Shown here piece after piece: positions 1,279 through 42,699 of a DNA stretch of 44,067 nt (the first letter of the stretch is position 1; the number at the start of each line of letters is the position of its first letter). A program made the translations under genes and the position numbers. The notes beneath the pieces are model-generated. The model ran no database searches. It was given only the letters and a program-made list of their open reading frames with translations, and was not told the DNA's origin. The stretch is from a virus (taxonomy: Duplodnaviria; Heunggongvirae; Uroviricota; Caudoviricetes): the IMG/VR virus record IMGVR_UViG_2909303794_000010, positions 1 through 44,067 of that record; one strand, written 5' to 3'.

Positions 1279-1854
1279 TATAAGAATCCGCTTCTAATTC
1301 AAAGCATTACCCCATCAACACTGCGCTCACACGTCCCACCACATCAAAACATGTAAAGCCTTGCAATCCATTGCGAGGCCTTATATGTCTCAGTTTTGTC
1401 CCACCTTGTATTACGACTTGCATAGCTAATGAAGATAAATGTGACGACAAACGGCGAAGCAGTCTTCTTTTCTTTCGCTGCTTCCCCACACCCAGCATGC
1501 ATACCTTTCCGTCATAACTGAAGTGAATGTCAGTTATGAGCGAGAAGCAGACATTTACTTAACTGGATAGCAAGAGACTTCATACTACAGCTCATACATC
1601 ATGGTTGAGCCAAGAGTTTTCAGTAATGGAAAGACATTGCCCACATGATCGTACCGTAACCACATTAGAAGCAGGTGCACTTTGCGAATTCTGATTGTTT
1701 CAACCTATCGGTTTTGAATTTTTTATAAAAAATATTCGCAAATTTGTGAATTATGAGAGACAAACGAGCATGGACAACCTATGTTACTTTCATACACAAT
1801 GAAGCAACATGATAAAAATACACTGACTTTAGTAAGTAAATTTAGGAGATTGCG

Positions 1855-3189
1855 ATGTTTAGCTTAATCATGGCCGGAGAACCGGACGTTTTTGACCGCT
1901 GGCCGTGTATGGATCCTAAGCTTAAAGAAGGCAAGGATAGCTTCTCGATGTCCCGCATGCTAGAAGGCACCCCAAGCGATATTTACAGTAAATTAACACC
2001 AATAAGACCTGATACCTTAAGAGAACTCGCCAAGCTACCGGTGTTGTTCATGACCGAAACTTATACAAAAGATGATGAATATGATACAAACAAGTACATC
2101 AGGATCAGGCTTGGGGAAATAAAAAATTTACATAAAGATGGTGGCGATATTTTATTTTCTTTCAAGATTAATCATGATTTTGGAGAAATAACAAACCCCC
2201 AAACGGCATTATATAAAGAAACCCTGGGACTAGGAGCTTTCGGGTTAAGTCGTACACATTGGGCAGTAAAAGATAAGGATTTGAATATTGTTCTGGAATG
2301 GCTTGGTTTAAACAAGAAAAATAACCATTCGAAAGGTACAATCAAATTAAAAAAACAAACATACCCAGTAGCCGAGAATATCATAGATTATCTTAATTTT
2401 ATTAAGAAATACCATCATGATGGTCTCATTACCTTTTATCGTGGACACTCTAAAAGCTCATATGAGCTTGTCCCCTCTCTTTACAGAAAAAATCAAAACG
2501 GGACGTACAGGCATCTTGCTTCAGAATCTGATTTAGTACGTGAAATACTCAGCGCAAGACCAAATGAATTTAAGGAGGATAAATTTACGATTGATAAACT
2601 TGTCCGCATGCAGCATTATGGCTTGCCTACGAGACTCCTAGATATTACATCTAACCCACTGATAGCATTATATTTTGCTTGCTGTTCGAACCCCGATGAA
2701 AACGGACAGGTGATTTCGTTTTCAACAAACAGAAAGAAAATTAAATATTTCGACTCAGATACAGTTAGCTGTATAGCAAACTTATCACTTTTATCTTACG
2801 ATGAGCTGGAAAAATTGTCATCCATTGATGCCAGAAAAGGTACTACAGAGGTATCTGAAATCACTGATAAACTTGCGGACCTTATACAGAATGAAAAATC
2901 ATATTTCAGAAGCAGAATAATTCCTGATGACTTAAAGAAAGTTGTTTTCCTTAAGGCTAAAATAAATAATGAACGCATACAGTCTCAGGCTGGCGCCTTT
3001 CTTCTGTTCGGACTTGATCCAATTTTGCCGGAAACAGATGCTGAGTTTCCTCTTAACAGACTCGAGATAACAAACAAAAATAAAATTCTGGAAGAGCTGG
3101 CGCAGCTTAATATATCCGAAAGCACTGTATACCCCAGCATGGAGAAAACGGCAGCGGAAATTACAAAAAAGTTTTTATCGGTATCATAA
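1855..3189 (+). CDS. FRG-domain protein (444 aa) with an unassigned N-terminal region of ~190 aa
   Basis: Motifs FYRGHS ... VRMQHYGLPTRLLDITSNPLIALYFAC match the FRG-domain signature as I recall it. RBS AGGAGA 6 nt upstream of the ATG. AT-rich. Confidence 0.6.
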   Translation: MFSLIMAGEPDVFDRWPCMDPKLKEGKDSFSMSRMLEGTPSDIYSKLTPIRPDTLRELAKLPVLFMTETYTKDDEYDTNKYIRIRLGEIKNLHKDGGDILFSFKINHDFGEITNPQTALYKETLGLGAFGLSRTHWAVKDKDLNIVLEWLGLNKKNNHSKGTIKLKKQTYPVAENIIDYLNFIKKYHHDGLITFYRGHSKSSYELVPSLYRKNQNGTYRHLASESDLVREILSARPNEFKEDKFTIDKLVRMQHYGLPTRLLDITSNPLIALYFACCSNPDENGQVISFSTNRKKIKYFDSDTVSCIANLSLLSYDELEKLSSIDARKGTTEVSEITDKLADLIQNEKSYFRSRIIPDDLKKVVFLKAKINNERIQSQAGAFLLFGLDPILPETDAEFPLNRLEITNKNKILEELAQLNISESTVYPSMEKTAAEITKKFLSVS

Positions 3190-3390
3190 AGGGATAAACT
3201 AAAGGCAACGAAAACCAAGACTGCACAGTCTTCAAGGTGGAACTACTCATCAGGGGGCGGTTTCAGACTCAGGGTGAAAAATCGGAAGCTTCAGTGGCCT
3301 TGAACCACCCCCTATAAATTAACATATCTCAATGTTATCAATGTCTGCTTTTAGCACTGAAAGGACAAGCTAACAGAGTGCAGGTCCGGT

Positions 3391-4881
3391 GTGAGTGAAA
3401 GCAATATAAATCATTTACAAACCTCAGAGGATAGAGAATTGTTTACACTATTGTCATTTAACATTACACACAAAGAAAATGAAATATATGATTGTATATT
3501 TACAGATAATCAAAGGCATATACGAAATCTTCCGTTGAGTAGTATTGTTATTGGCGAAAATGGTTCTGGTAAAAGTTATTTGCTATCTCAGATCGCAGAT
3601 TTCTTTAGATTTATTCAAAGAATCATAAGCAAAGAAAAGAAACCATATTACAAATATGAATCTGCATCAGTTTCATATTTGATTGATTCAAACTTAATCG
3701 TTATAAAAAAGGACAGAAATAAGGTTTTGTGTTTTGTTAATGATGTTCCATCTAATATATTCAATGTAATATTACCAACTAAAGTAATAGCTATGTCCTT
3801 TATGGTTAATGATAAGTTTTCTTTTTCGAGGTTCGAGGAAGACGATTTTTATGATTATCGTGGAGTTAGAGCGACGTCTAATGCTTCTTATACTAGTACA
3901 ATTAAAAGAATGATAACCAACTCATTAATATTGTCGATAGGCTATAGAGATAAACTAAAGGCGGTAAAAGATACTTTGCATTTTTTGGGCATGAGTGAAA
4001 AATTAGCTATTACTTACAATCTCAACAGGAAAACTTTATTAAAAAAACAACCACCACTTAACACCATACTAAAAAAAATAGATGCAATTTTGCGACGAAA
4101 GCAGTACGTTAATGAGAATGATCTTTATAAAATTAAAGAAAATCCAGAAGTCATACTTCATGATATAGCTGTTTTGAGCGAAGAATGCAAGGAGAAAAAT
4201 AGTAGAATACATCTTACCCTTGACCTTAGTGATGAAGGGGGAGTTGTTAAAAAATCATTATTCCAGTCTTTATCACGCTTGGAAAAATTAGAGTTTATTT
4301 CTAACCCTGACGTTGAATTCTACAAAAAAGATAATTTTTCATTTGAAGAAACTAGTTCTGGTGAAAAGAATATTATTTTTACCATTCTTAATTTAATTGC
4401 AAGCATCAAAAATAACTCATTGCTTTTAATTGATGAGCCAGAATTGAGCTTGCACCCTACCTGGCAAATGAAATACATAAATTTCATAAAGAAATCAATA
4501 GCTTATAATTTTGACTGTCACCTTATATTTGCATCACATTCACATTTTATGGTGTCGGATTTAGAATCAGAATCCTCATCACTAATATCTATAAATCAAT
4601 GTAATGGGAAAAGAATATGTGAGCACATTGAATATAGCACATATGCTTGGTCCGTAGAAAATATACTGTACAAGGTTTTTCATTTACGTACCATTAGAAA
4701 TGCTCAAGTCGAAATGGATCTTTATGAATTATCAGGTCTCATATCTCAAAAAAGCTCAGATATTAAGAGAATGGAGGAAATCCTTACGCATTTGGAAAGG
4801 ATAGTGTTAGATGTAAACGATCCCTTAAATATGATAATAGAACAAGCTAGAATCTATATTGGTGGCTACCATGATAAATAA
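3391..4881 (+). CDS. P-loop ATPase of the AAA_15/AAA_21 (OLD/ABC-like) type, Septu PtuA-like
   Basis: Walker A GENGSGKS and Walker B-like LLLIDEPELSLHP; ~496 aa; start is GTG at 3391 with a weak RBS. Confidence 0.65.
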   Translation: MSESNINHLQTSEDRELFTLLSFNITHKENEIYDCIFTDNQRHIRNLPLSSIVIGENGSGKSYLLSQIADFFRFIQRIISKEKKPYYKYESASVSYLIDSNLIVIKKDRNKVLCFVNDVPSNIFNVILPTKVIAMSFMVNDKFSFSRFEEDDFYDYRGVRATSNASYTSTIKRMITNSLILSIGYRDKLKAVKDTLHFLGMSEKLAITYNLNRKTLLKKQPPLNTILKKIDAILRRKQYVNENDLYKIKENPEVILHDIAVLSEECKEKNSRIHLTLDLSDEGGVVKKSLFQSLSRLEKLEFISNPDVEFYKKDNFSFEETSSGEKNIIFTILNLIASIKNNSLLLIDEPELSLHPTWQMKYINFIKKSIAYNFDCHLIFASHSHFMVSDLESESSSLISINQCNGKRICEHIEYSTYAWSVENILYKVFHLRTIRNAQVEMDLYELSGLISQKSSDIKRMEEILTHLERIVLDVNDPLNMIIEQARIYIGGYHDK

Positions 4882-5488
4882 AATCACTAATGACATCTAT
4901 ATGCCACCATTCATAATGAATAAGATAAACTCGTTTAAACCTTTTGTGGGTGGTAGCTGGGATAGAAAAGATAAAGCGATTATTATTTTTAAACGGTTAT
5001 TGAGAAAGCAGCTATTAACAGCACAGAATAATTGTTGTGCATACTGTGGATTACCATTAGGTGAAACAGGAAAAACAGAAATTGAACATTTGGTTGCAAA
5101 AGGTGGACCTAAAAGGCCAAAGCATATAGAATTTACTTTTGAAGTTGAAAATCTTTATTTATCATGCAATTTATGTAATAGCCCTTTGAAAAAAGGCACT
5201 AAAGAAACCCTTATTTATAAAGATCCCATCTCATACTCTAACTGTACTTTTAGTATTGTACATCCTAGATATGACACACCTAATTTGCATTATTCATGGG
5301 TTGTAAGCGCTGTAGAGGTTCTCATACAAGGAATTACCGACAAAGGTCGAGAGAGTATTAAAATGTTTAAACTTGACTCCCCCCCTCATAATGAAGCACG
5401 TGCTAGAATAGAAATGTTAAGGAGATATAAAATGCTCATTAACTCTCCACAAATTGATCAGATAAATGCAGCCCTTCGATATAATTAA
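4871..5488 (+). CDS. HNH endonuclease, Septu PtuB-like
   Basis: CCAYCG...EIEHLVAK...NLYLSCNLCN HNH/zinc-ribbon motif. The ATG at 4871 overlaps the upstream stop (ATGATAAATAA), implying translational coupling; the ORF track's 4859 start is a TTG. Confidence 0.65.
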   Translation: MINKITNDIYMPPFIMNKINSFKPFVGGSWDRKDKAIIIFKRLLRKQLLTAQNNCCAYCGLPLGETGKTEIEHLVAKGGPKRPKHIEFTFEVENLYLSCNLCNSPLKKGTKETLIYKDPISYSNCTFSIVHPRYDTPNLHYSWVVSAVEVLIQGITDKGRESIKMFKLDSPPHNEARARIEMLRRYKMLINSPQIDQINAALRYN

Positions 5489-23223: not shown

Positions 23224-24957
23224 TTAAAGCGAGCGGATCCCGTAGGACTCAATGTGATCAGACAGCGTGTCTTCTTTCTCGTACAGCATGGCTCTGCCAA
23301 CCGCCATAATCAGCGCAACTGCACCGTCAATTTTGTTTTCCGCCTGCTCTTTGACGGGTTTCACCACATCATCGTTACCCGGCATGTTTTTGCCGACCAC
23401 GTTGCCGATACACCAGGTCATGATGGGATTGCCGTCATGATGAAAACGTCCCGATTCAATGGCTGCTTCCAGCTCTTTCATCGGATCGGACATATTGGTG
23501 AAGTTCTGGAAGATAGTGACGGGATTCAGGTCTTCATCAGCAAGGTCATGTGACAGCCCGGTCGCCCCGAAGGGGTCGATGGGTGACTCGCTGACCGGGC
23601 TGATTTTGTTCGCCGCTTTGGCCTCTTCGAGGATGTAGCGATAATCCACCTCTGCACCATCGGTAACGGTCAGGACGCCCATTTCCACCCATTTCTGAAA
23701 GCGTTCGGCTGTCCGGCGATCTTCATTTTTCTCGACGCTGTACACCGTGTCATACGGTACCCAGAAACGCGGGGCCACACTGTAGTAATGCGTTTTACCG
23801 TCAATCTCGCGGGTATAAAGTCGCGCCATGCTGTTCATATCCAGCTTACGCGCCAGGTCAAAGGCCAGAATGCACGGCTGCCCCTCGAACTGCTCAAGAG
23901 TCAGTGATTTATCCTCGCAGCTCTGCCAGCTCACCAGGTTGAAATACGCCGAACGCGCCGACACCCAGATATTGAGGTGTTTTGTTTTAAAGACGTTTGC
24001 CAGACGGGCGTTATTTTTCGCACGCTGCTGCTGACTTAACAAAAATTCGCGATAAACCGACACGCCAATATTTGGATTGGCTTTTTCCAGCACCTGCGGG
24101 TCGGTCCAGTCGTCACCTTCATCAACGGTATAGATGATCCCGAACAGTTCATCGTTAGGCACCGAGCCGTTGAGCATCTCGATGACTTCCCGCCGTTTGT
24201 CGTAGCACGGCCCCTCAATGTTGTACCCGGCGGTGGTGATGGCCCACATCAGTGGCTGACGTCGCGCCCCCATCCCGGTAAGCATTGTGGTATAAAGCGC
24301 ATCGGTGGCATGCTCGTGATATTCATCAACCACGGCACAGTGGGGTGATGAACCATCACCTGGGTTGCCGATCAGCGGTTCAAACCGCGCGCCATCCTCC
24401 GGACGGTTCATGTTTGAGGCGTTAACCTCAATCCCGAACGCTTCCGTCAGCATGGGTGTGCGTTTACACATCAGTCGCGCCGGGCGAAAGACTTCCCACG
24501 CCTGTTTCTCTGTCGTGGCACCGGAATACACTTCCGCGCCAAACTCGTTATCACAGGCAAAACAATACAGGGCAACACCGGCAGAGATTGCTGATTTGCC
24601 GTTCTTACGGGGGATTTCGGTATACACCTCCCTGAAGCGGCGCAGCCGGGAGCCTTTATTGACCCAGCCAAACGCACAGCAGATCACAAAGAGCTGCCAC
24701 GGTTCCAGCGTGATGGGCATCCTCTTGAATGCCCACTCCCCCTTGGTGTGCGGCAACAGCTGAATAAATTTCGCGGCCCGTTCAGCCAGGTCCTTGTCGA
24801 AGCGGTAACGAAACGACTTACTTTTTTCCGCCATCAGGTCATCAAGATGGCGCTGGCAGGCCTGAATCACAAACTGGCAGGCCACAATCTTTCCGCGCAC
24901 GACATCACGGGCATACTGATTGGCAGCATTTACGTTGGGGTAAGATTTCCGGCTCAT
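23224..24957 (-). CDS. terminase large subunit
   Basis: 577 aa; ATPase and nuclease-type motifs; 4-bp overlap with the small subunit. Confidence 0.9.
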
Positions 24958-25457
24958 GATTCGATGATTTTCAGAAACGGGTTAGTGGCTTTCTTCTGCC
25001 CCGCCAGGCCAATCAGACGCTGGCGGCTGCTGGGGTCGAGTCCGAGCATTGCCCCCGTACTGCTCATCTCGGACTCCTGTTCTTTTTTGGCGGTCAGCTC
25101 CGGATTTTTGACCATACCGCCCATTGCACCGGTGATGGTGTTGCCCTGTCTGGCAATATTTTTCACGGCACGTCGCCAGAACTCGTAGGCCACGCACCAC
25201 CGCTCAAGCACCGCGAGGTCAGTCACGCACAGCAGGCCCTGACCGCAGAGTTCTTTAGTTGTCAGTTGCCACATGATCGTAGCGAGAGGGAGATCTTCTT
25301 CAGCGAACCACTCCGGTGGCTCAACACCTTTGATGGGCGTAAAAACAGGTTCATCTTTATTCAGGGCTCGCTTGCCGGGGTTTCCGGCCAGCGCCTTGCG
25401 CGCCGTTGGCTTGGGGCGACGCCCGGAACGCCCCGCCGTTCCAGCCATATGCGGCAC
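24954..25457 (-). CDS. terminase small subunit
   Basis: 167 aa, basic N-terminus, directly upstream of the large subunit. Confidence 0.75.
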
Positions 25458-25573: not shown

Positions 25574-25924
25574 TCACTTAAGCCGTTCACGGGCCGTCTT
25601 CGCCTTATGACACGGCCAGCACAGACTCTGCAGATTACTGTCGGCATCAGTGCCGCCATGTGCTTTAGGGATGATGTGATCAACGGTTTTCGCCTCACGC
25701 GCCACACCAGCACGCAGACATAACTGACACAGGCCTTTGTCACGTTGCAGCACACGCACACGGATAACATCCCACTTAGAACCATAACCGCGCTGATGAC
25801 GGGATTGTCCTGACTTGTATTGCTTCCAGCCTTCGCTTTTGTGGCTTTCGCAATAGCCTGATGAGTCAGTGGTGGTATGGGGGCAGCCGCGAACGCGGCA
25901 GGCTTTTGGGGTTCGTGGTGGCAT
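25574..25924 (-). CDS. HNH endonuclease (terminase-associated)
   Basis: CxxC...DHIIPKAHGG...N...CWPCH motif; start chosen at MPPRTPKA with RBS AAGAGGA; the ORF track start at 25987 is probably too long. Confidence 0.8.
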   Translation of the reverse strand: MPPRTPKACRVRGCPHTTTDSSGYCESHKSEGWKQYKSGQSRHQRGYGSKWDVIRVRVLQRDKGLCQLCLRAGVAREAKTVDHIIPKAHGGTDADSNLQSLCWPCHKAKTARERLK

Positions 25925-26074
25925 TGCATAATCCTCTTGGATGGTTCGCGTGCGATACGTGGCATCCTTCTCAGAATCGAATCGCACTCCACTCCGGTTT
26001 TGCCATAAACGATCTTTTATGCTTCGCTGGATGTAGTTGATAGTTGTTGAAACTCAATGAACAGGAGTTCACAA

Positions 26075-26410
26075 ATGAATAGTTATGAATGGGAATGGCT
26101 TTTAAACAAAGATGACACCCTATGCTTTTTCCCCGTAGGCCATTCTGTAGAAGGTAATTACAAAATTCACTTTGAGTTGAGCGGTAGTTGTAACCTTAGA
26201 GTCTCAGATGCTGAATGGCATGGTAAACCTGTACTGCTGTTCGAATACTTCGATGAAGATGATGACCGCCCTGCAATAATCGAAATATTAGAAACAACCA
26301 CTACAACTGTGGAGGCGATGATCGCACATCTGAATAGTATCGATAGTATTTACCATGAACCGATTTACAAAGCGGTTTACGAGTGGGCCGTAAAGTTTTT
26401 CTATCGATGA
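26075..26410 (+). CDS. hypothetical acidic protein (111 aa)
   Basis: RBS AGGAG 7 nt upstream of the ATG at 26075; acidic stretch EYFDEDDDRPAIIEILE; antisense to the late operon; AT-rich. Confidence 0.5.
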   Translation: MNSYEWEWLLNKDDTLCFFPVGHSVEGNYKIHFELSGSCNLRVSDAEWHGKPVLLFEYFDEDDDRPAIIEILETTTTTVEAMIAHLNSIDSIYHEPIYKAVYEWAVKFFYR

Positions 26411-26453
26411 TAGTTCGTTATCTTGCTGGCATTCACAATACCTTTACATACTA

Positions 26454-27080
26454 ATGACATGCCAGCACAATACTGTCACTTACAACCGTTCGGATTACCT
26501 AGAGAAAAGTATGATTCAGGATTTACTGATCGAAGCAATTAGTCACGATAGGATGCATAAAAAGTTAAATGAACTGAATTGCTACTTCTACAATCGCAAA
26601 CATGAAACTCAAATACGTGATGAGTTAGTTGTTATTCTCAATCAAATCAGCACACTAACTGCTTTAAGTGAGCATCCAAAACTCGGTATCGGCGCTGTTG
26701 ACATATCACTTTATAACCAGTCGATATTAACGTCTGAACATAATGGCAATGTTGCAACCATCGAGATTAAACACCATTACCCAAAGGATTTACTTTATCG
26801 GCAAGTTCAAGAAGACATCATTTCCGATATTTCAAGAGTAATAGTTTCACCAACTACACACTTTATCCATATAATCCAGCAAAGAACCAAGATTAAAACT
26901 CCTTCTTTTGGTCAAGTGAAATTCCTTGAACGTGATGCAAGTGATATCAGCACTTATGTGCAATGTCTTGAGGAGCTAAGTTCATTTCCCAGTAATTTTC
27001 ATAAAAAAAGTGTATGTATTGAGGTACTTGGTGAAATTATGTCGACATATACCTTTAACGTATATTCATTTGACAACTGA
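26454..27080 (+). CDS. hypothetical protein (208 aa; alternative start 26511)
   Basis: Long ORF co-oriented with the preceding gene; no recognisable motifs. Confidence 0.45.
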   Translation: MTCQHNTVTYNRSDYLEKSMIQDLLIEAISHDRMHKKLNELNCYFYNRKHETQIRDELVVILNQISTLTALSEHPKLGIGAVDISLYNQSILTSEHNGNVATIEIKHHYPKDLLYRQVQEDIISDISRVIVSPTTHFIHIIQQRTKIKTPSFGQVKFLERDASDISTYVQCLEELSSFPSNFHKKSVCIEVLGEIMSTYTFNVYSFDN

Positions 27081-27101: not shown

Positions 27102-27359
27102 TTAATGGTTAGTTCTCTCTGCATCTATTTTACGAATATCAGCTTTATCCCGATTGCAGTTAGCCAGCGCAGACAACAGACTCACATTCAGCTCCAGACT
27201 GGCACCATACGTCAGCGGATTAGGTATAAACGGTACAGGAGTATCAGAAGTCAGGCTGGGTGGCAGTGGTGCCACCGGAACGCTCACGTAAACTGTCCGC
27301 GTACTTCCGCAACCGGTCAGCAGCGGCAGCAGGCACAGCACGTGAAGCACAATCATCAT
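27102..27359 (-). CDS. Rz1-like outer-membrane spanin
   Basis: Lipobox LLTGC after a signal-like MIVLHVLCLLP, Pro-rich mature part; +1-frame overlap with the 3' end of the Rz gene. Confidence 0.6.
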   Translation of the reverse strand: MMIVLHVLCLLPLLTGCGSTRTVYVSVPVAPLPPSLTSDTPVPFIPNPLTYGASLELNVSLLSALANCNRDKADIRKIDAERTNH

Positions 27360-27636
27360 CCGCAACAGCCATTTTGATATCTTCCTGGGTTCTCTGTGAC
27401 TCCAGTGCGATCTGCTGTTTTGCATGCTGGTTAGCCTCCAGTACTGTATTGACGATTTGCAGTGATTGCAGGACGTTATTGGTAATGGCAGTTGCCGATT
27501 TGGCATTTTGTACAGCCTCATCAGCACGTTTCTTTTCGTGCTGATATTTGCTGTAGTAGTGATTCGCTGACCAGATGAAAGAGCCAATAACAGTAAAGAA
27601 GAAAGCAGAGATAGTCAGCTTATAACTCAACTTCAT
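27244..27636 (-). CDS. Rz-like inner-membrane spanin
   Basis: N-terminal TM helix then a charged coiled-coil region; immediately downstream of the endolysin. Confidence 0.7.
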   Translation of the reverse strand: MKLSYKLTISAFFFTVIGSFIWSANHYYSKYQHEKKRADEAVQNAKSATAITNNVLQSLQIVNTVLEANQHAKQQIALESQRTQEDIKMAVADDDCASRAVPAAAADRLRKYADSLRERSGGTTATQPDF

Positions 27637-28096
27637 TTACCACCCCACCAGCCTCTTTAAATCGGGCAATCAGGTCACCGATTTTATGTTCATACTGACC
27701 GTAACCTGCACCGGGTAATGAAGCCCATATATTGCTGCAACGGTCGATTGCCTGACGAATATCGCCGCTATCAATCATAGGTAAAGCGCCACGCTCTTTA
27801 ATCTGCTGCAATGCCACTGCGTCCTGGCTTTTGGGGGAGAAGTCTTTCAAACCAAGCTGTTTACGGTAAGCATCCCACCAACGGGAAAGAAGCTGGTAAC
27901 GTCCGGCGGCTGTTGATTTGAGTTTGGAGTTTAGCTTGACAAGTTTGCGAGGGTGATCGGAGTAATCAGTGAACAGTTCGCCACCAACAATAACATCATA
28001 ACCGTGGTTACGTGTCGGTTGTCGCCCGTTATCCGTTCCTTCTGACCATGCCACCATATCAAGGAAAGCTTTACGCTGGGGATTTAGTGCCTGCAT
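27620..28096 (-). CDS. endolysin, lambda R-like lytic transglycosylase
   Basis: NPQRKAFLDMVAWSEGTDNGRQPTRNHGYDVIVGGELFTDYSDHPRKLV... is near-identical to lambda R as I recall it. Confidence 0.9.
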   Translation of the reverse strand: MQALNPQRKAFLDMVAWSEGTDNGRQPTRNHGYDVIVGGELFTDYSDHPRKLVKLNSKLKSTAAGRYQLLSRWWDAYRKQLGLKDFSPKSQDAVALQQIKERGALPMIDSGDIRQAIDRCSNIWASLPGAGYGQYEHKIGDLIARFKEAGGVVNEVEL

Positions 28097-28099
28097 AAA

Positions 28100-28507
28100 T
28101 TACTCCTTAGAATTACCAAATTTGTTACCGATTACTCGCATTGCAGCCCCACGAATAGCATCGACACCGATCAGCCCAACGCCGCCACCAATGGCAACAG
28201 AAAGCGATTTAGGCCATCCGACATACTCAAGAGCGGATGCAAAGGTCAGCGTCAGAGCACCACAGAGCAAGATCTCGAGCGTTTTTCGCTTCCAGCCACC
28301 ACCACTGCCAAAATAGGCAATGCGCAAGCCAGCCATAACGATCGACATAATCACTGCGCCCAGTGGCGTATCTCCACGCCACCAGCTCTGAAACAACTCC
28401 AGCCAGTCTGGCCAGGTATTTGGGTTATGAGGCATTTCGTCATCTCTCACCTCGCGATTATTTGCGGGTGCTGTGTTGGAAATAAAAAGGCCACGCAACG
28501 TGGCCAC
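28100..28507 (-). CDS. holin (putative, three TM segments; probable start near 28435)
   Basis: Directly upstream of the endolysin; three hydrophobic helices and a charged C-terminus; not lambda S-like. Confidence 0.55.
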   Translation of the reverse strand: MATLRGLFISNTAPANNREVRDDEMPHNPNTWPDWLELFQSWWRGDTPLGAVIMSIVMAGLRIAYFGSGGGWKRKTLEILLCGALTLTFASALEYVGWPKSLSVAIGGGVGLIGVDAIRGAAMRVIGNKFGNSKE

Positions 28508-28512
28508 CAGAA

Positions 28513-29565
28513 TTATTTCCCCACCAGTTCACTTACCTCTTTCACCGTCTGATTAAACCGCTCTGACTCAAGTTCAACACCTAACGCCCGACGTCCCAGC
28601 GCCATTGCTGCTTTTATTGTGGAACCGGATCCCATAAAAAAATCAGCAACCAGATCACCTGGTCGACTACTGGCATTGATTATTTGCCGGAGCATATCCG
28701 CAGGCTTCTCACACGGATGTTTACCCGGGTAGAACTGAACGGGTTTATGCGTCCAGACGTCGGTATAAGGCACGGAAACTGATACGGAGAAATAGCGCCG
28801 GAGAGATTTAAACTCATCCAGCAATTCAGAATATTTGCGATTCAGTGAATCATAAGATGCCACCAGCTGGTGGTGTGGTTGTTCCAGTTGTTGTTCCTGA
28901 AACTTCTCTGCCGCTATACGGGAAAACAGTGCCTGTAACTTCCGATAGTCAGCCTCATTCGGCAACTGCCACTGACTGGCACCAAACCAGTGGGAAACCA
29001 TATTTTTCTTACCTGTGGCTTCGGCAATTTGTTTTGCCGTTATACCCAGTTCGGCACGAGCATCCCTGAAATACGATATCAGCGGTGCCATTATGTGCTG
29101 TTTGAGTTCCCTTTCTTTTGCCGCATAGCCGTCACTTTTGCCGCGATATGGCCCCTGGTAATGTTCAGCAAACAGAACGCGCTCTGTGGCAGGAAAATAT
29201 GCGCGCAGACTTTCTTTATTACACCCATTCCAACGTCCGGACGGCTTCGCCCAGATGATATGGTTAAGCACGTTGAAACGTTCACGCATCATGATCTCAA
29301 TATCAGATGCCAGGCGATGCCCACAGAACAGGTAAAGGCTTCCGGCAGGTTTTAACACCCGCCAGAACTGGGCCAGACAGTGGTCCAGCCACTTAAGGTA
29401 ATCTTCGTCCCCTTTCCACTGATTGTCCCAGCCGTTGGGTTTCACCTTGAAGTAAGGCGGATCGGTAACAATCAGGTCAATGGAATCATCAGGCAGGGAC
29501 TGAATAAAATGCAGGCAATCAGCGTTGATTAAATCAACACTGTTTATTTTTACAGTATTTTTCAT
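28513..29565 (-). CDS. DNA methyltransferase (N6-adenine or N4-cytosine, beta-class)
   Basis: N-terminal DPPY motif (LIVTDPPYFKV); 350 aa; no adjacent restriction endonuclease. Confidence 0.85.
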   Translation of the reverse strand: MKNTVKINSVDLINADCLHFIQSLPDDSIDLIVTDPPYFKVKPNGWDNQWKGDEDYLKWLDHCLAQFWRVLKPAGSLYLFCGHRLASDIEIMMRERFNVLNHIIWAKPSGRWNGCNKESLRAYFPATERVLFAEHYQGPYRGKSDGYAAKERELKQHIMAPLISYFRDARAELGITAKQIAEATGKKNMVSHWFGASQWQLPNEADYRKLQALFSRIAAEKFQEQQLEQPHHQLVASYDSLNRKYSELLDEFKSLRRYFSVSVSVPYTDVWTHKPVQFYPGKHPCEKPADMLRQIINASSRPGDLVADFFMGSGSTIKAAMALGRRALGVELESERFNQTVKEVSELVGK

Positions 29566-30179: not shown

Positions 30180-31208
30180 ATGGCTACACTGGACGCATTC
30201 AGTAGAGTAATAACTCATCATACTATTACGATCGATACACAATACCGTACACAGAAAATTGATGATAGCATCAGATCGAACTGTGTTTGCCCGGTACCAA
30301 CAATGCGTGAACTTGCTTCTAAAATAGTACGTTGTAAAGCAATGATGCACAGTTATGAAAAAGGAGACTTAGTTTTAACTTTGCAAGATGTAATCTTCTT
30401 ATCAAACAGAGCCGATAAAAAACCCAGCCATCTTGGTCTTTTAATTAATGCTGTAGATAAAAATGGAAGCACTACTGTGTTAAAAAACATTAATACAGAT
30501 GTTCGTACCGAAATATCACCAAAACATGAGGAAGGTGAAGGTTACGAAGTTTCTTCTCATATGATTATTTCTCTAGACGGAAATATGCGAACCTATGACA
30601 TGAGTTTTATGCCAATACCAGGAGTTTCCACAGCAAAAATAAATGGTTTCCTGAATAAAGTTCTCTTTAACGTAGCCAAAGATAATGAAGATATCTTTTC
30701 ATGTAACACTTTAACAAATGAAGTATCAAGTTTAACAAAGAAAAAAATAAAAGTATTATACAAGCCAGTCTTTGATATATCTGGAAAGTTAGATGAAGAT
30801 TTGTTCAATAAAATAAATAAAGAAGGACTTTCTGATGTCGTTTTGGTAAAGAATGAATACAGAACTATTAATGCGCCAGATGTTAACGCGGCTATTATTC
30901 CTAAAGAAAGTACTTTACGCTTAGTACCAAACCATGGCCCCAACAATGTCCTTGGATGGATAAAATCTGTCTCAAACTTCTTTAAAGAAGATAAAAATGG
31001 AGGTTATGACTTAATAAAAATAAAATTCAAAGAGCCAGAGACAGGATTCACAAGACAAGTTGACCTTCAAACTTCAAATGTAAGGCTCGATGGGCTGGAA
31101 AAAACATTTATCAAAAAGAGTGTAATAAATGGTTTTTCTTCGCGCTTAAAGGATTCTTATGATAGTATTAACATGGAGTTTGTGAATAAGATTATCGAGG
31201 TCATGTGA
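30180..31208 (+). CDS. hypothetical protein (342 aa), no recognisable family
   Basis: Long AT-rich ORF antisense to the flanking phage genes; Lys/Asn-rich; no catalytic motif identified by eye. Confidence 0.55.
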   Translation: MATLDAFSRVITHHTITIDTQYRTQKIDDSIRSNCVCPVPTMRELASKIVRCKAMMHSYEKGDLVLTLQDVIFLSNRADKKPSHLGLLINAVDKNGSTTVLKNINTDVRTEISPKHEEGEGYEVSSHMIISLDGNMRTYDMSFMPIPGVSTAKINGFLNKVLFNVAKDNEDIFSCNTLTNEVSSLTKKKIKVLYKPVFDISGKLDEDLFNKINKEGLSDVVLVKNEYRTINAPDVNAAIIPKESTLRLVPNHGPNNVLGWIKSVSNFFKEDKNGGYDLIKIKFKEPETGFTRQVDLQTSNVRLDGLEKTFIKKSVINGFSSRLKDSYDSINMEFVNKIIEVM

Positions 31209-31215
31209 GGCTAAT

Positions 31216-31791
31216 ATGATTAGTATATTTTCACATTTATTTAGACCGTTTGGTTACCTTTTCATTAAGGGAATTAGTGGTAAGTGCGCATACGATTTTT
31301 ATGCACCTGCCGGGCTTGCTGTGATTTCTTTTTTTTACTTTTATTTATTTAAAATACCCACATCAGACCTACTAAAAGATGGCGGCTTTATTAAGTCTAT
31401 ATCTGGATTTGTATCAAATCTGCCAGGTTTTTATATAGCAGCTCTTGCAGCAATAGCCACTTTCAACAGAGAACAAATTGACTACCCTCTGATAGGAACT
31501 AATGGCACGCCTTTTATTAAAATTACACGAACAAAAGAAAATGGTAGAATTGTTGACACTCAAGAGAAACTTACCAGAAGATTATTTCTGTGCATGTTAT
31601 TTTCATTTTTAACTGCCCTCAGCATATGCATAGTGATTTTCAACGCTTTTATCACACCACTAATAAACATACTGAATAATGATATAGCAAACTGGTGCTA
31701 TATCATTATCTTTTTATTCCTTACATGGCAAATGCTTGTTTCAACATTTTTTGGACTATACTATCTTGGTGATAGGATTCACATTAATTAA
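31216..31791 (+). CDS. integral membrane protein (191 aa, ~4 TM helices)
   Basis: Four hydrophobic stretches (e.g. GLAVISFFYFYLF, LFLCMLFSFLTALSICIVIF, WCYIIIFLFLTWQMLV); starts 7 bp after the upstream gene. Confidence 0.6.
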   Translation: MISIFSHLFRPFGYLFIKGISGKCAYDFYAPAGLAVISFFYFYLFKIPTSDLLKDGGFIKSISGFVSNLPGFYIAALAAIATFNREQIDYPLIGTNGTPFIKITRTKENGRIVDTQEKLTRRLFLCMLFSFLTALSICIVIFNAFITPLINILNNDIANWCYIIIFLFLTWQMLVSTFFGLYYLGDRIHIN

Positions 31792-41219: not shown

Positions 41220-41569
41220 TGGAGCCATACAGCCTCACACTCGATGAGGCCTGTCATTTTCTCAAGATATCCAGACCGACTGCCATTAACTGGATACGCA
41301 CAGGGCGTCTTCAGGCAACACGCAAAGATCCCACTAAGAATAAATCTCCTTACCTCACAACACGACAAGCCTGCATTGCGGCTCTTCAGTCTCCGCTGCA
41401 TACTGTCCAGGTGAGCGCGGGTGATGGCATAACAGAGGAAAGAAAATGTCACTCTTCCGCAGAGGTGAAATATGGTACGCCAGTTTCACATTGCCGAACG
41501 GTAAAAGATTTAAACAGTCTCTTGGAACAAAGGACAAAAGGCAGGCGACAGAACTCCATGACAAGCTAA
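41219..41569 (+). CDS. excisionase-like HTH protein (end uncertain; overlaps the integrase start)
   Basis: [30 protein letters not shown] is an AlpA/Xis-type HTH; RBS AGGTGA before the ATG at 41219. Confidence 0.55.
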
Positions 41570-42609
41570 AGGCTGAAGCATGGCGGGTCAGCAAACTTGG
41601 TGAAATACCTGATATAACGTTCGAGGAAGCGTGTGTCAGGTGGCTTGAAGAGAAAGCACATAAAAAATCACTGGACGATGACAAAAGCCGGATCGGATTC
41701 TGGCTTCAACATTTCGCAGGAATGCAACTAAGAGACATTACTGAATCAAAAATTTATTCAGCAATGCAGAAAATGACGAACCGGCGTCATGAGGAAAACT
41801 GGAAACTCAGGGCAGAAGCATGCAGAAAAAAAGGGAAACCTGTTCCAGAATACACGCCAAAACCAGCGTCCGTTGCAACGAAGGCTACGCATCTTTCATT
41901 TATAAAGGCCCTACTAAGAGCCGCAGAGCGTGAATGGAAAATGCTGGATAAGGCACCAATTATTAAAGTGCCTCAACCAAAGAATAAACGGATCCGCTGG
42001 CTGGAGCCCCATGAAGCACAAAGGCTGATTGATGAATGTCCGGAGCCATTAAAGTCTGTTGTTGAATTTGCACTGGCAACAGGTTTAAGACGCTCGAACA
42101 TCATCAACCTTGAATGGCAACAAATAGATATGCAGCGCCGGGTGGCATGGATAAACCCGGAAGAGAGTAAATCAAACCGCGCAATTGGCGTTGCGCTGAA
42201 TGATACTGCATGTCGCGTATTGAAAAAACAAATCGGGAATCATCACCGTTGGGTATTTGTGTACAAGGAAAGCTGTACCAAACCAGACGGAACGAAAGCG
42301 CCAACAGTAAGGAAGATGCGGTATGACGCAAACACAGCCTGGAAAGCGGCGCTGAGACGGGCTGGTATTGATGATTTCAGATTTCACGACTTGAGACACA
42401 CCTGGGCAAGTTGGCTGGTTCAAGCCGGAGTCCCGTTGTCAGTGTTACAGGAAATGGGAGGCTGGGAGTCTATCGAAATGGTTCGTCGATATGCTCACCT
42501 TGCACCTAATCACCTTACCGAACACGCACGGCAAATAGACTCGATCCTGAACCCATCGGTCCCAAATTTGTCCCAGTCAAAAAATAAGGAAGGTACTAAT
42601 GATGTGTAA
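41446..42609 (+). CDS. tyrosine integrase (prophage integrase)
   Basis: 387 aa with [10 protein letters not shown]...Y-type C-terminal catalytic region; adjacent to the tRNA attachment site. Confidence 0.9.
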
Positions 42610-42622
42610 CTTATTGATTTAA

Positions 42623-42669
42623 ATGGTGCCGATAATAGGAGTCGAACCTACGACCTTCGCATTACGAAT
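42623..42669. repeat. right att direct repeat (within the tRNA 3' end)
   Basis: Identical to 1232-1278. Confidence 0.8.
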
Positions 42670-42699
42670 GCGCTGCTCTACCAACTGAGCTATATCGGC
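42624..42699 (-). tRNA. thrW: tRNA-Thr (anticodon CGU)
   Basis: Reverse complement reads GCCGATATAGCTCAGTTGGTAGAGCAGCGCATTCGTAATGCGAAGGTCGTAGGTTCGACTCCTATTATCGGCACCA: cloverleaf-compatible, anticodon loop TT-CGT-AA, T-loop GGTTCGACTCC, encoded CCA. Confidence 0.9.

Follow-up and report, generated by a model that had tools for sequence, protein, structure and literature searches.

Two small genes on the plus strand interrupt the late region of an Escherichia coli prophage, and the question they raise is whether they act together, as a defence or anti-defence pair, or are separate cargo genes that share an insertion site. The prophage was analysed over the whole of IMG/VR record IMGVR_UViG_2909303794_000010 (positions 1 to 44,067; this stretch of 44,067 nucleotides is the window referred to below). 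It is lambdoid, integrated beside tRNA-Thr and equipped with an HK97-type packaging module, and its late genes are all on the minus strand. The two genes, here called A (encoding an acidic protein of 111 amino acids) and B (189 amino acids), lie between the spanin genes Rz/Rz1 and an HNH endonuclease gene of the packaging module. The original prediction had read two AT-rich open reading frames (ORFs) at this place, opposite in direction to their neighbours, and this holds: G+C content is 0.40 in A and 0.35 in B, compared with ~0.55 in the terminase/HNH flank. That prediction also took the two for a pair. We find that A and B, although stacked in one slot, are separate items of cargo and not a functional pair, and that B is a putative nuclease which may act alone.

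Within E. coli, A and B are found in 78 and 79, respectively, of 5,426 complete genomes, in the same order and with a 100-nt spacer. The 1.1-kb block containing both genes (79 genomes) is 95-99.7% identical among these genomes, and the E. coli locus L001 (L-numbers denote individual loci) carries both genes in a block 99.7% identical to that of the window. Co-occurrence is confined to this block, which is at least 95% identical everywhere, and is seen in no other genus, so the linkage reflects shared descent of one recent block rather than coupling of the two genes. B homologs with 61-72% identity stand alone, antisense, between the lysis genes and the small terminase gene in Enterobacter (L002-L005), Klebsiella electrica (L006-L007) and Yersinia (L008), and a tblastn search for A at these loci (L002-L008) found none. 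A homologs with 56-73% identity likewise stand alone in the same slot and orientation in Escherichia sp. ESNIH1 (L009-L011), Serratia (L030) and metagenomic enterobacterial prophages (L012-L015, L017-L019), while in Pectobacterium and Pantoea A is located in prophage remnants. Among IMG/VR loci at ≤71% identity, A is absent within the flanks of B in 24/24 cases and B is absent from 5/5 A loci. The hosts of lone A or lone B are unrelated lambdoid or P22-like prophages. Joint conservation outside the E. coli block, the absence of which the original prediction had itself named beforehand as evidence against a pair, is thus not found.

The two genes also come apart in E. coli-type loci. In E. coli strain J31 (L029) B is intact and A is frameshifted, and in L050 and L051 an unrelated 151-amino acid gene on the minus strand replaces A. 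Conversely, B is cut to 38 amino acids beside an intact A in L084-L086, and several complete genomes have A at full length with B split or truncated. A 72-75-amino acid ORF upstream of the Enterobacter B genes was considered as an A-like partner and rejected; it has no similarity to A, and lies antisense within the region where the small-terminase gene begins.

For B, the original prediction gave a length of 208 amino acids and recognised no motif. The longest ORF (26454-27080) does encode 208 amino acids, but B itself comprises 189, since all homologs, PHROG 12494 and the Prokaryotic Genome Annotation Pipeline (PGAP) start at Met20 (MIQDLL...). Homologs with 59-73% identity occur in Yersinia, Pectobacterium, Citrobacter, Enterobacter and Klebsiella; the family is small, as an exhaustive hidden Markov model search of 1.84 billion representative proteins returned only 42 relatives at E ≤0.001. 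Across 32 members, with identities down to 19%, residues K30, E32, D64, E85 and K87 are invariant, D93 and D106 are nearly so, and E54 and P56 are at least 90% conserved. The AlphaFold2 model of B is confident (predicted local distance difference test score [pLDDT] 84, predicted template modelling score [pTM] 0.85) and runs helix-strand-strand-strand-helix-strand, the order of the restriction-endonuclease core (alpha-beta-beta-beta-alpha-beta). In this model D64 precedes the second strand (residues 65-68) and E85 and K87 are within the third (80-89), so that B presents the D...(D/E)-x-K arrangement of the PD-(D/E)xK enzymes together with an acidic residue in the first helix, a restriction-endonuclease-fold signature that the original prediction had missed. 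About 24 of the top 60 hits are restriction enzymes, Hjc resolvases, Cas4, NucC or CdiA nuclease toxins, and distant members of the family have weak Pfam matches to HSDR_N (1.4e-4, two members), PDDEXK_9, DpnII-MboI and Tox-REase-7, which are families of the PD-(D/E)xK clan. A Foldseek comparison of B with the PDB gave no match at E <0.2, and a sequence-profile search of the PDB gave none. Taken from the model and the pattern of conserved residues, B is probably a PD-(D/E)xK nuclease.

Restriction enzymes of the EcoRV-like branch of type II (R.SwaI, 5tgq; BglI, 1dmu; EcoRV, 1eo3) are 14-16% identical to B, with no sequence-profile match, and B differs from them in being smaller, prophage-borne and without a cognate methyltransferase. 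No methyltransferase adjoins B in the loci examined (Enterobacter, Klebsiella, metagenomic and Yersinia); at the Yersinia locus a D12-class enzyme is encoded 3.3 kb off, across the lysis genes. The window has an N6_N4 DNA methyltransferase gene in its late operon, upstream of the holin gene, and a split restriction-modification (R-M) system made of B and this enzyme was considered and rejected: ~1,300 of the 5,426 E. coli genomes have the methyltransferase gene, but only in 29 does it lie joined to A+B. In L001 the A+B block is present without it. B therefore does not belong to a classical R-M system, there being no cognate methyltransferase that adjoins it or strictly co-occurs with it. The absence of a methyltransferase does fit a comparison with type IV enzymes. 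McrA of prophage e14 is a type IV enzyme, a solitary nuclease without a methyltransferase that combines an HNH domain with a modification-reading domain. Like B, it is encoded by a single prophage-borne gene, and a mode of action of this kind would explain tolerance by the host; unlike McrA, B is built on a PD-(D/E)xK core, and no reader domain can be recognised in it.

For A, the AGGAG ribosome-binding site described in the original prediction is in place (Table), and an AGG/GGA-rich element occupies the same position in homologous loci. Both genes are under purifying selection: in comparisons between genera, synonymous divergence (dS) is saturated and nonsynonymous divergence (dN) is ~0.2, and dN/dS is 0.05-0.24 for A or B comparisons in which dS is estimable. 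With dN this low while synonymous sites are saturated, A and B are real genes and not chance ORFs. Homologs of A, a family of 38 members, occur in Hafnia, Serratia, Pantoea, Citrobacter and Pectobacterium, with identities down to 36%. Over 22 members of this range, E57, D60, D62, D63 and D64 are at least 90% conserved, which makes this loop, along with P20, D45, H94 and W104, the best conserved feature of the protein. The first five belong to the acidic peptide EYFDEDDDRPAIIEILE (residues 57-73), which had drawn attention to A in the first place. The protein has an isoelectric point (pI) of 4.56, a net charge of -12 and 18% acidic residues, and its AlphaFold2 model is poor (pLDDT 53).

The top PDB sequence match for both A profiles is CPR-C4 (PDB 7ob6; E 0.1-0.2 over 65 residues), a vasohibin-like cysteine protease. 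The matching region of A comprises residues 45-109 (window positions 26207-26401), and the two proteins have in common the motif Y-x-[ED]-P-I-Y-K-x-V-x-E-x-A. A differs from CPR-C4 in that it is without the N-terminal part that bears the catalytic cysteine, and the catalytic histidine aligns with a variable position (K, R or E) in A, provided that the numbering of the paper and that of the chain agree. Membership of A in the CPR-C4 family was rejected because the catalytic cysteine region is absent and the histidine position is variable, leaving the match an unconfirmed lead. The resemblance may mark a degenerate relative or be due to chance.

Both proteins are named ‘hypothetical protein’ in every database entry. 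In PHROGs, A matches PHROG 14397 (5.6e-79) and B matches PHROG 12494 (2.5e-127), in full length and near-identical, and both families are listed as ‘unknown function’. The proteins gave no match in PADLOC-DB v2.0.0 (systems up to 2023) at E up to 1, their exact peptide strings were not found in the portions of the DefensePredictor supplementary tables that were covered, and a literature search found no paper that mentions their RefSeq accessions or PHROG identifiers. Neither DNA nor protein searches found A or B among 50,697 isolated-phage records, and an Rfam scan gave no match in the A/B region. A and B are thus already catalogued as PHROGs of unknown function; B represents a small new family in a well-known enzyme superfamily, and A an orphan family of small proteins.

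The slot between Rz/Rz1 and the packaging genes is the position of bor in phage lambda. Its content in related prophages was surveyed by searching with the HNH/terminase and Rz/endolysin flanks joined. The slot is empty in L025 (26 nt between HNH and Rz1), and elsewhere holds an 83-amino acid antisense ORF (L026), a 169-amino acid co-oriented ORF (L027), a DUF2441 gene (L028) or, in related E. coli prophages, iss/bor with an insertion sequence element. In line with the earlier reading of A and B as antisense cargo, the two were acquired horizontally and occupy a slot of variable content. The lambda bor/iss moron has the same position, lies on the strand opposite to the late operon and is variably present, and the same is true of A and B, cargo genes that run opposite to the late operon and are found in only some of the relatives. 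A and B are not homologous to Bor/Iss: Pfam gives them no Bor/Iss match, and on reading the sequences no lipoprotein features were seen. The left edge of the block, beside A, retains a record of its origin. Here a remnant of 11 codons (33 nt) encodes MAKPEWSAIRF*, the start of a foreign small terminase, and in both A-only (L012) and B-only (L006) loci a small-terminase start reading MAKPDWG(V/E)LQQRF abuts the cassette. The remnant implies that the A+B block was imported from a phage with that type of terminase into the HNH/P27-type backbone.

Lambda bor is expressed in lysogens. The 100-nt spacer between A and B contains a predicted promoter-like site, TTTACA-17-CACAAT, upstream of the B start, and L050, an E. 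coli locus with B alone, retains this element; in B-only loci of other genera a TATAAT box lies ~45 nt upstream of the B start codon. On our reading, A and B would be transcribed in the lysogen from promoters of their own. A terminator scan showed no enrichment over shuffled sequences, and a hairpin at 26372-26391 was rejected as a terminator because it lies within the coding end of A.

The account that we favour, and to which we assign about even chances, is that A and B are independent single-gene morons in the lambda bor slot, with B a nuclease that excludes foreign DNA and A acting separately. Recombination with a phage whose small terminase was of another type would have brought in the block and left the 33-nt scar. 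In the lysogen, B would have a promoter of its own and be transcribed in the direction opposite to the late genes; with the help of E32 and E54, D64 and E85-x-K87 would bind Mg2+ and cleave DNA, and incoming foreign or phage DNA would be the target of what is a candidate single-gene exclusion nuclease. As no methyltransferase accompanies B, the host would have to be spared in another way, through dependence on modification, a preference for some DNA structure, or gating by a trigger. Convergent late transcription may damp expression of A and B during lytic growth of the prophage itself. A would act apart from B, as a small cytoplasmic protein whose DEDDD loop would most likely bind a basic partner protein or a metal. 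The defence part of the earlier guess would then apply to B acting alone, as a candidate. Prophage hotspots are main reservoirs of defence systems in E. coli (PMC9519451; PMC13092281). A defence role for B fits its setting, because other AT-rich cargo of the prophage matches known or candidate defence systems and one B homolog is beside a gene with a Cap4 nuclease domain (see below).

Several observations weigh against this account. No modification-reader domain that would account for sparing of the host was detected in B, where the N-terminal helices 2-23 and the C-terminal hairpin 163-187 lie outside the assigned parts. Pfam, NCBIfam and PADLOC gave no match to the E. coli B protein, nor to A. 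The number of promoter-like sites in the region does not exceed that expected from shuffled sequences. Two distant B relatives are in non-phage chromosomal contexts and another is co-oriented with a terminase gene, so the B family is not strictly an antisense prophage moron. Finally, the role proposed for the DEDDD loop of A is close to a guess. On a non-phage metagenomic contig (L021) a distant B relative, P0047 (182 amino acids), has a second gene of 182 amino acids directly upstream (genes 616-1164 and 1219-1767), and the two may be a tandem duplicate.

Other readings assign A, or A and B together, a different part. That A and B form a two-component system, either toxin and antitoxin or nuclease with inhibitor or sensor, in which acidic A neutralises or regulates B, would account for their near-constant co-occurrence, order and spacing in E. 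coli, and a small acidic protein beside a nuclease does recall immunity/toxin pairs. We regard this as very improbable, as blocks so alike in E. coli share their gene content by descent and no other genus has both genes, as each gene survives intact where the other is frameshifted, replaced or truncated, and as the separate promoter-like site in the spacer is kept also where B is alone. The original prediction further proposed that A is a DNA mimic, that is, an anti-restriction or anti-defence protein of the Ocr/ArdA kind that shields phage DNA or disarms a host system. A is small and acidic, as are Ocr and ArdA, and its pI, net charge and nearly invariant DEDDD loop speak for the proposal. 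Its charge is modest and local, residing in one short conserved loop and not surface-wide, and a content of 18% acidic residues is unremarkable. Neither in sequence nor in fold does A resemble Ocr, ArdA or another known mimic (the fold search used the low-confidence model), and it matches no Pfam or PHROG family of known function. The gene runs opposite to the late operon and is located at the far end of the genome, a setting that is unlike that of an early gene and would suit expression in the lysogen. A mimic therefore appears improbable, if slightly less so than the two-component system. A broader variant is possible but doubtful. In it the B proteins would be anti-phage nucleases of a new, one-protein type, with a minimal restriction-enzyme fold of 189 amino acids that distinguishes foreign from host DNA without a methyltransferase, and A, as independent cargo, would block a competing phage or a host defence via its DEDDD loop.

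Two further readings concern B as a nuclease with another purpose. As a selfish, free-standing homing-type endonuclease, B would cut B-less relatives near the terminase gene and spread its cassette by recombinational repair. In its favour, B always lies immediately next to the 5' end of the packaging genes in phages whose terminases are unrelated, its composition is AT-rich and its distribution patchy, and the terminase fragment carried along with the block indicates recombination at the junction. However, gene A, iss/bor and other cargo share the slot, so that a permissive module boundary explains the position, and the neighbours of B differ (HNH, Terminase_2, Sf6_terminase, ParB_N/Mom), with no common target sequence evident. 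Antisense orientation is atypical of phage homing endonuclease genes. We consider homing unlikely, although less so than a role of B in the DNA metabolism of the phage, as junction resolvase, recombination nuclease or nuclease degrading host DNA. For the latter we see little probability, comparable to that of the DNA mimic: B is antisense to the late operon and different in composition in all enterobacterial prophages examined, the slot is empty in otherwise similar prophages, making B dispensable, and 0/50,697 isolated-phage records carry it. The account of two independent morons, with B as the candidate exclusion nuclease, is thus the one we retain.

Table. Positions in the window of genes A and B, their signals and the flanking genes of the prophage.
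Feature	Position	Strand	Basis or remark
Large terminase	23224-24957	-	Late gene, packaging
Small terminase, P27-family	24954-25457	-	Terminase_4
HNH endonuclease, packaging module; left flank of A+B	25574-25924	-	Pfam HNH 8e-16; PGAP start transferred from L001
Remnant of foreign small-terminase start, left edge of block	25974-26006	-	Translation and DNA alignment
AGGAG ribosome-binding site of A	26063-26067	+	7 nt before ATG
Gene A, acidic protein of 111 amino acids, PHROG 14397	26075-26410	+	PGAP calls the same 111-amino acid protein in L001
Codons for acidic loop of A, E57-Y-F-D60-E-D62-D63-D64	26243-26266	+	Family conservation
Promoter-like site in A-B spacer, predicted	26443-26471	+	9/12 matches
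Gene B, 189 amino acids, solitary PD-(D/E)xK-type nuclease candidate, PHROG 12494	26511-27080	+	
Codons of putative catalytic core of B, D64 and E85-I-K87	26700-26771	+	D64 = 26700-26702; E85-I-K87 = 26763-26771
Rz1 (LysC-like) nested in Rz (DUF2570), spanins; right flank	27102-27636	-	
Endolysin	27620-28096	-	
Holin	28100-28507	-	
N6_N4 DNA methyltransferase, late operon	28513-29565	-	1.3e-42

The window contains other AT-rich cargo. Beyond the tail-fibre end, ORFs 3391-4881 (+) and 4859-5488 (+) match the Septu proteins PtuA (9.6e-171) and PtuB (7.6e-33), and ORF 1855-3189 (+) encodes an FRG-domain protein that matches the PADLOC candidate PDC-S15 (1.6e-98). Two ORFs of 342 and 191 amino acids at 30180-31791 (+) match proteins A (1.3e-31) and B (1.7e-54) of PDC-M53 and have no Pfam match; this is presumably the ‘first’ antisense cargo pair of the earlier reader. 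In another IMG/VR prophage (L076), a B homolog with 51% identity (~3001-3540) and a gene for a Cap4 dsDNA endonuclease-domain protein (369 amino acids, 1501-2610, minus strand, 1.4e-47) are together in the post-Rz slot. At the right end of the window, tRNA-Thr (CGT; 42624-42699, minus strand) lies beside a 387-amino acid ORF (41446-42609, plus strand) that is the counterpart of the L001 integrase; the attachment site of the prophage is marked here, with proA beyond.

At present, A and B are best described as two uncharacterised genes of ordinary prophage cargo, at a type of locus that is well known; they do not constitute a new type of system. If B is active, a very small, methyltransferase-free nuclease of the restriction fold would join the exclusion genes carried by prophages, and would raise the question of how so small a protein avoids cutting host DNA. 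If the joint anti-phage reading of A and B were true, the lysis-to-terminase boundary of lambdoid prophages would rank with the defence hotspots of P2 and P4. Many interchangeable single-gene cassettes occupy the lambda bor slot across the prophages of enterobacteria and, because the other AT-rich cargo in the window comprises Septu, PDC-S15 and PDC-M53, this slot between lysis and terminase genes could be mined systematically for new defence and counter-defence genes.
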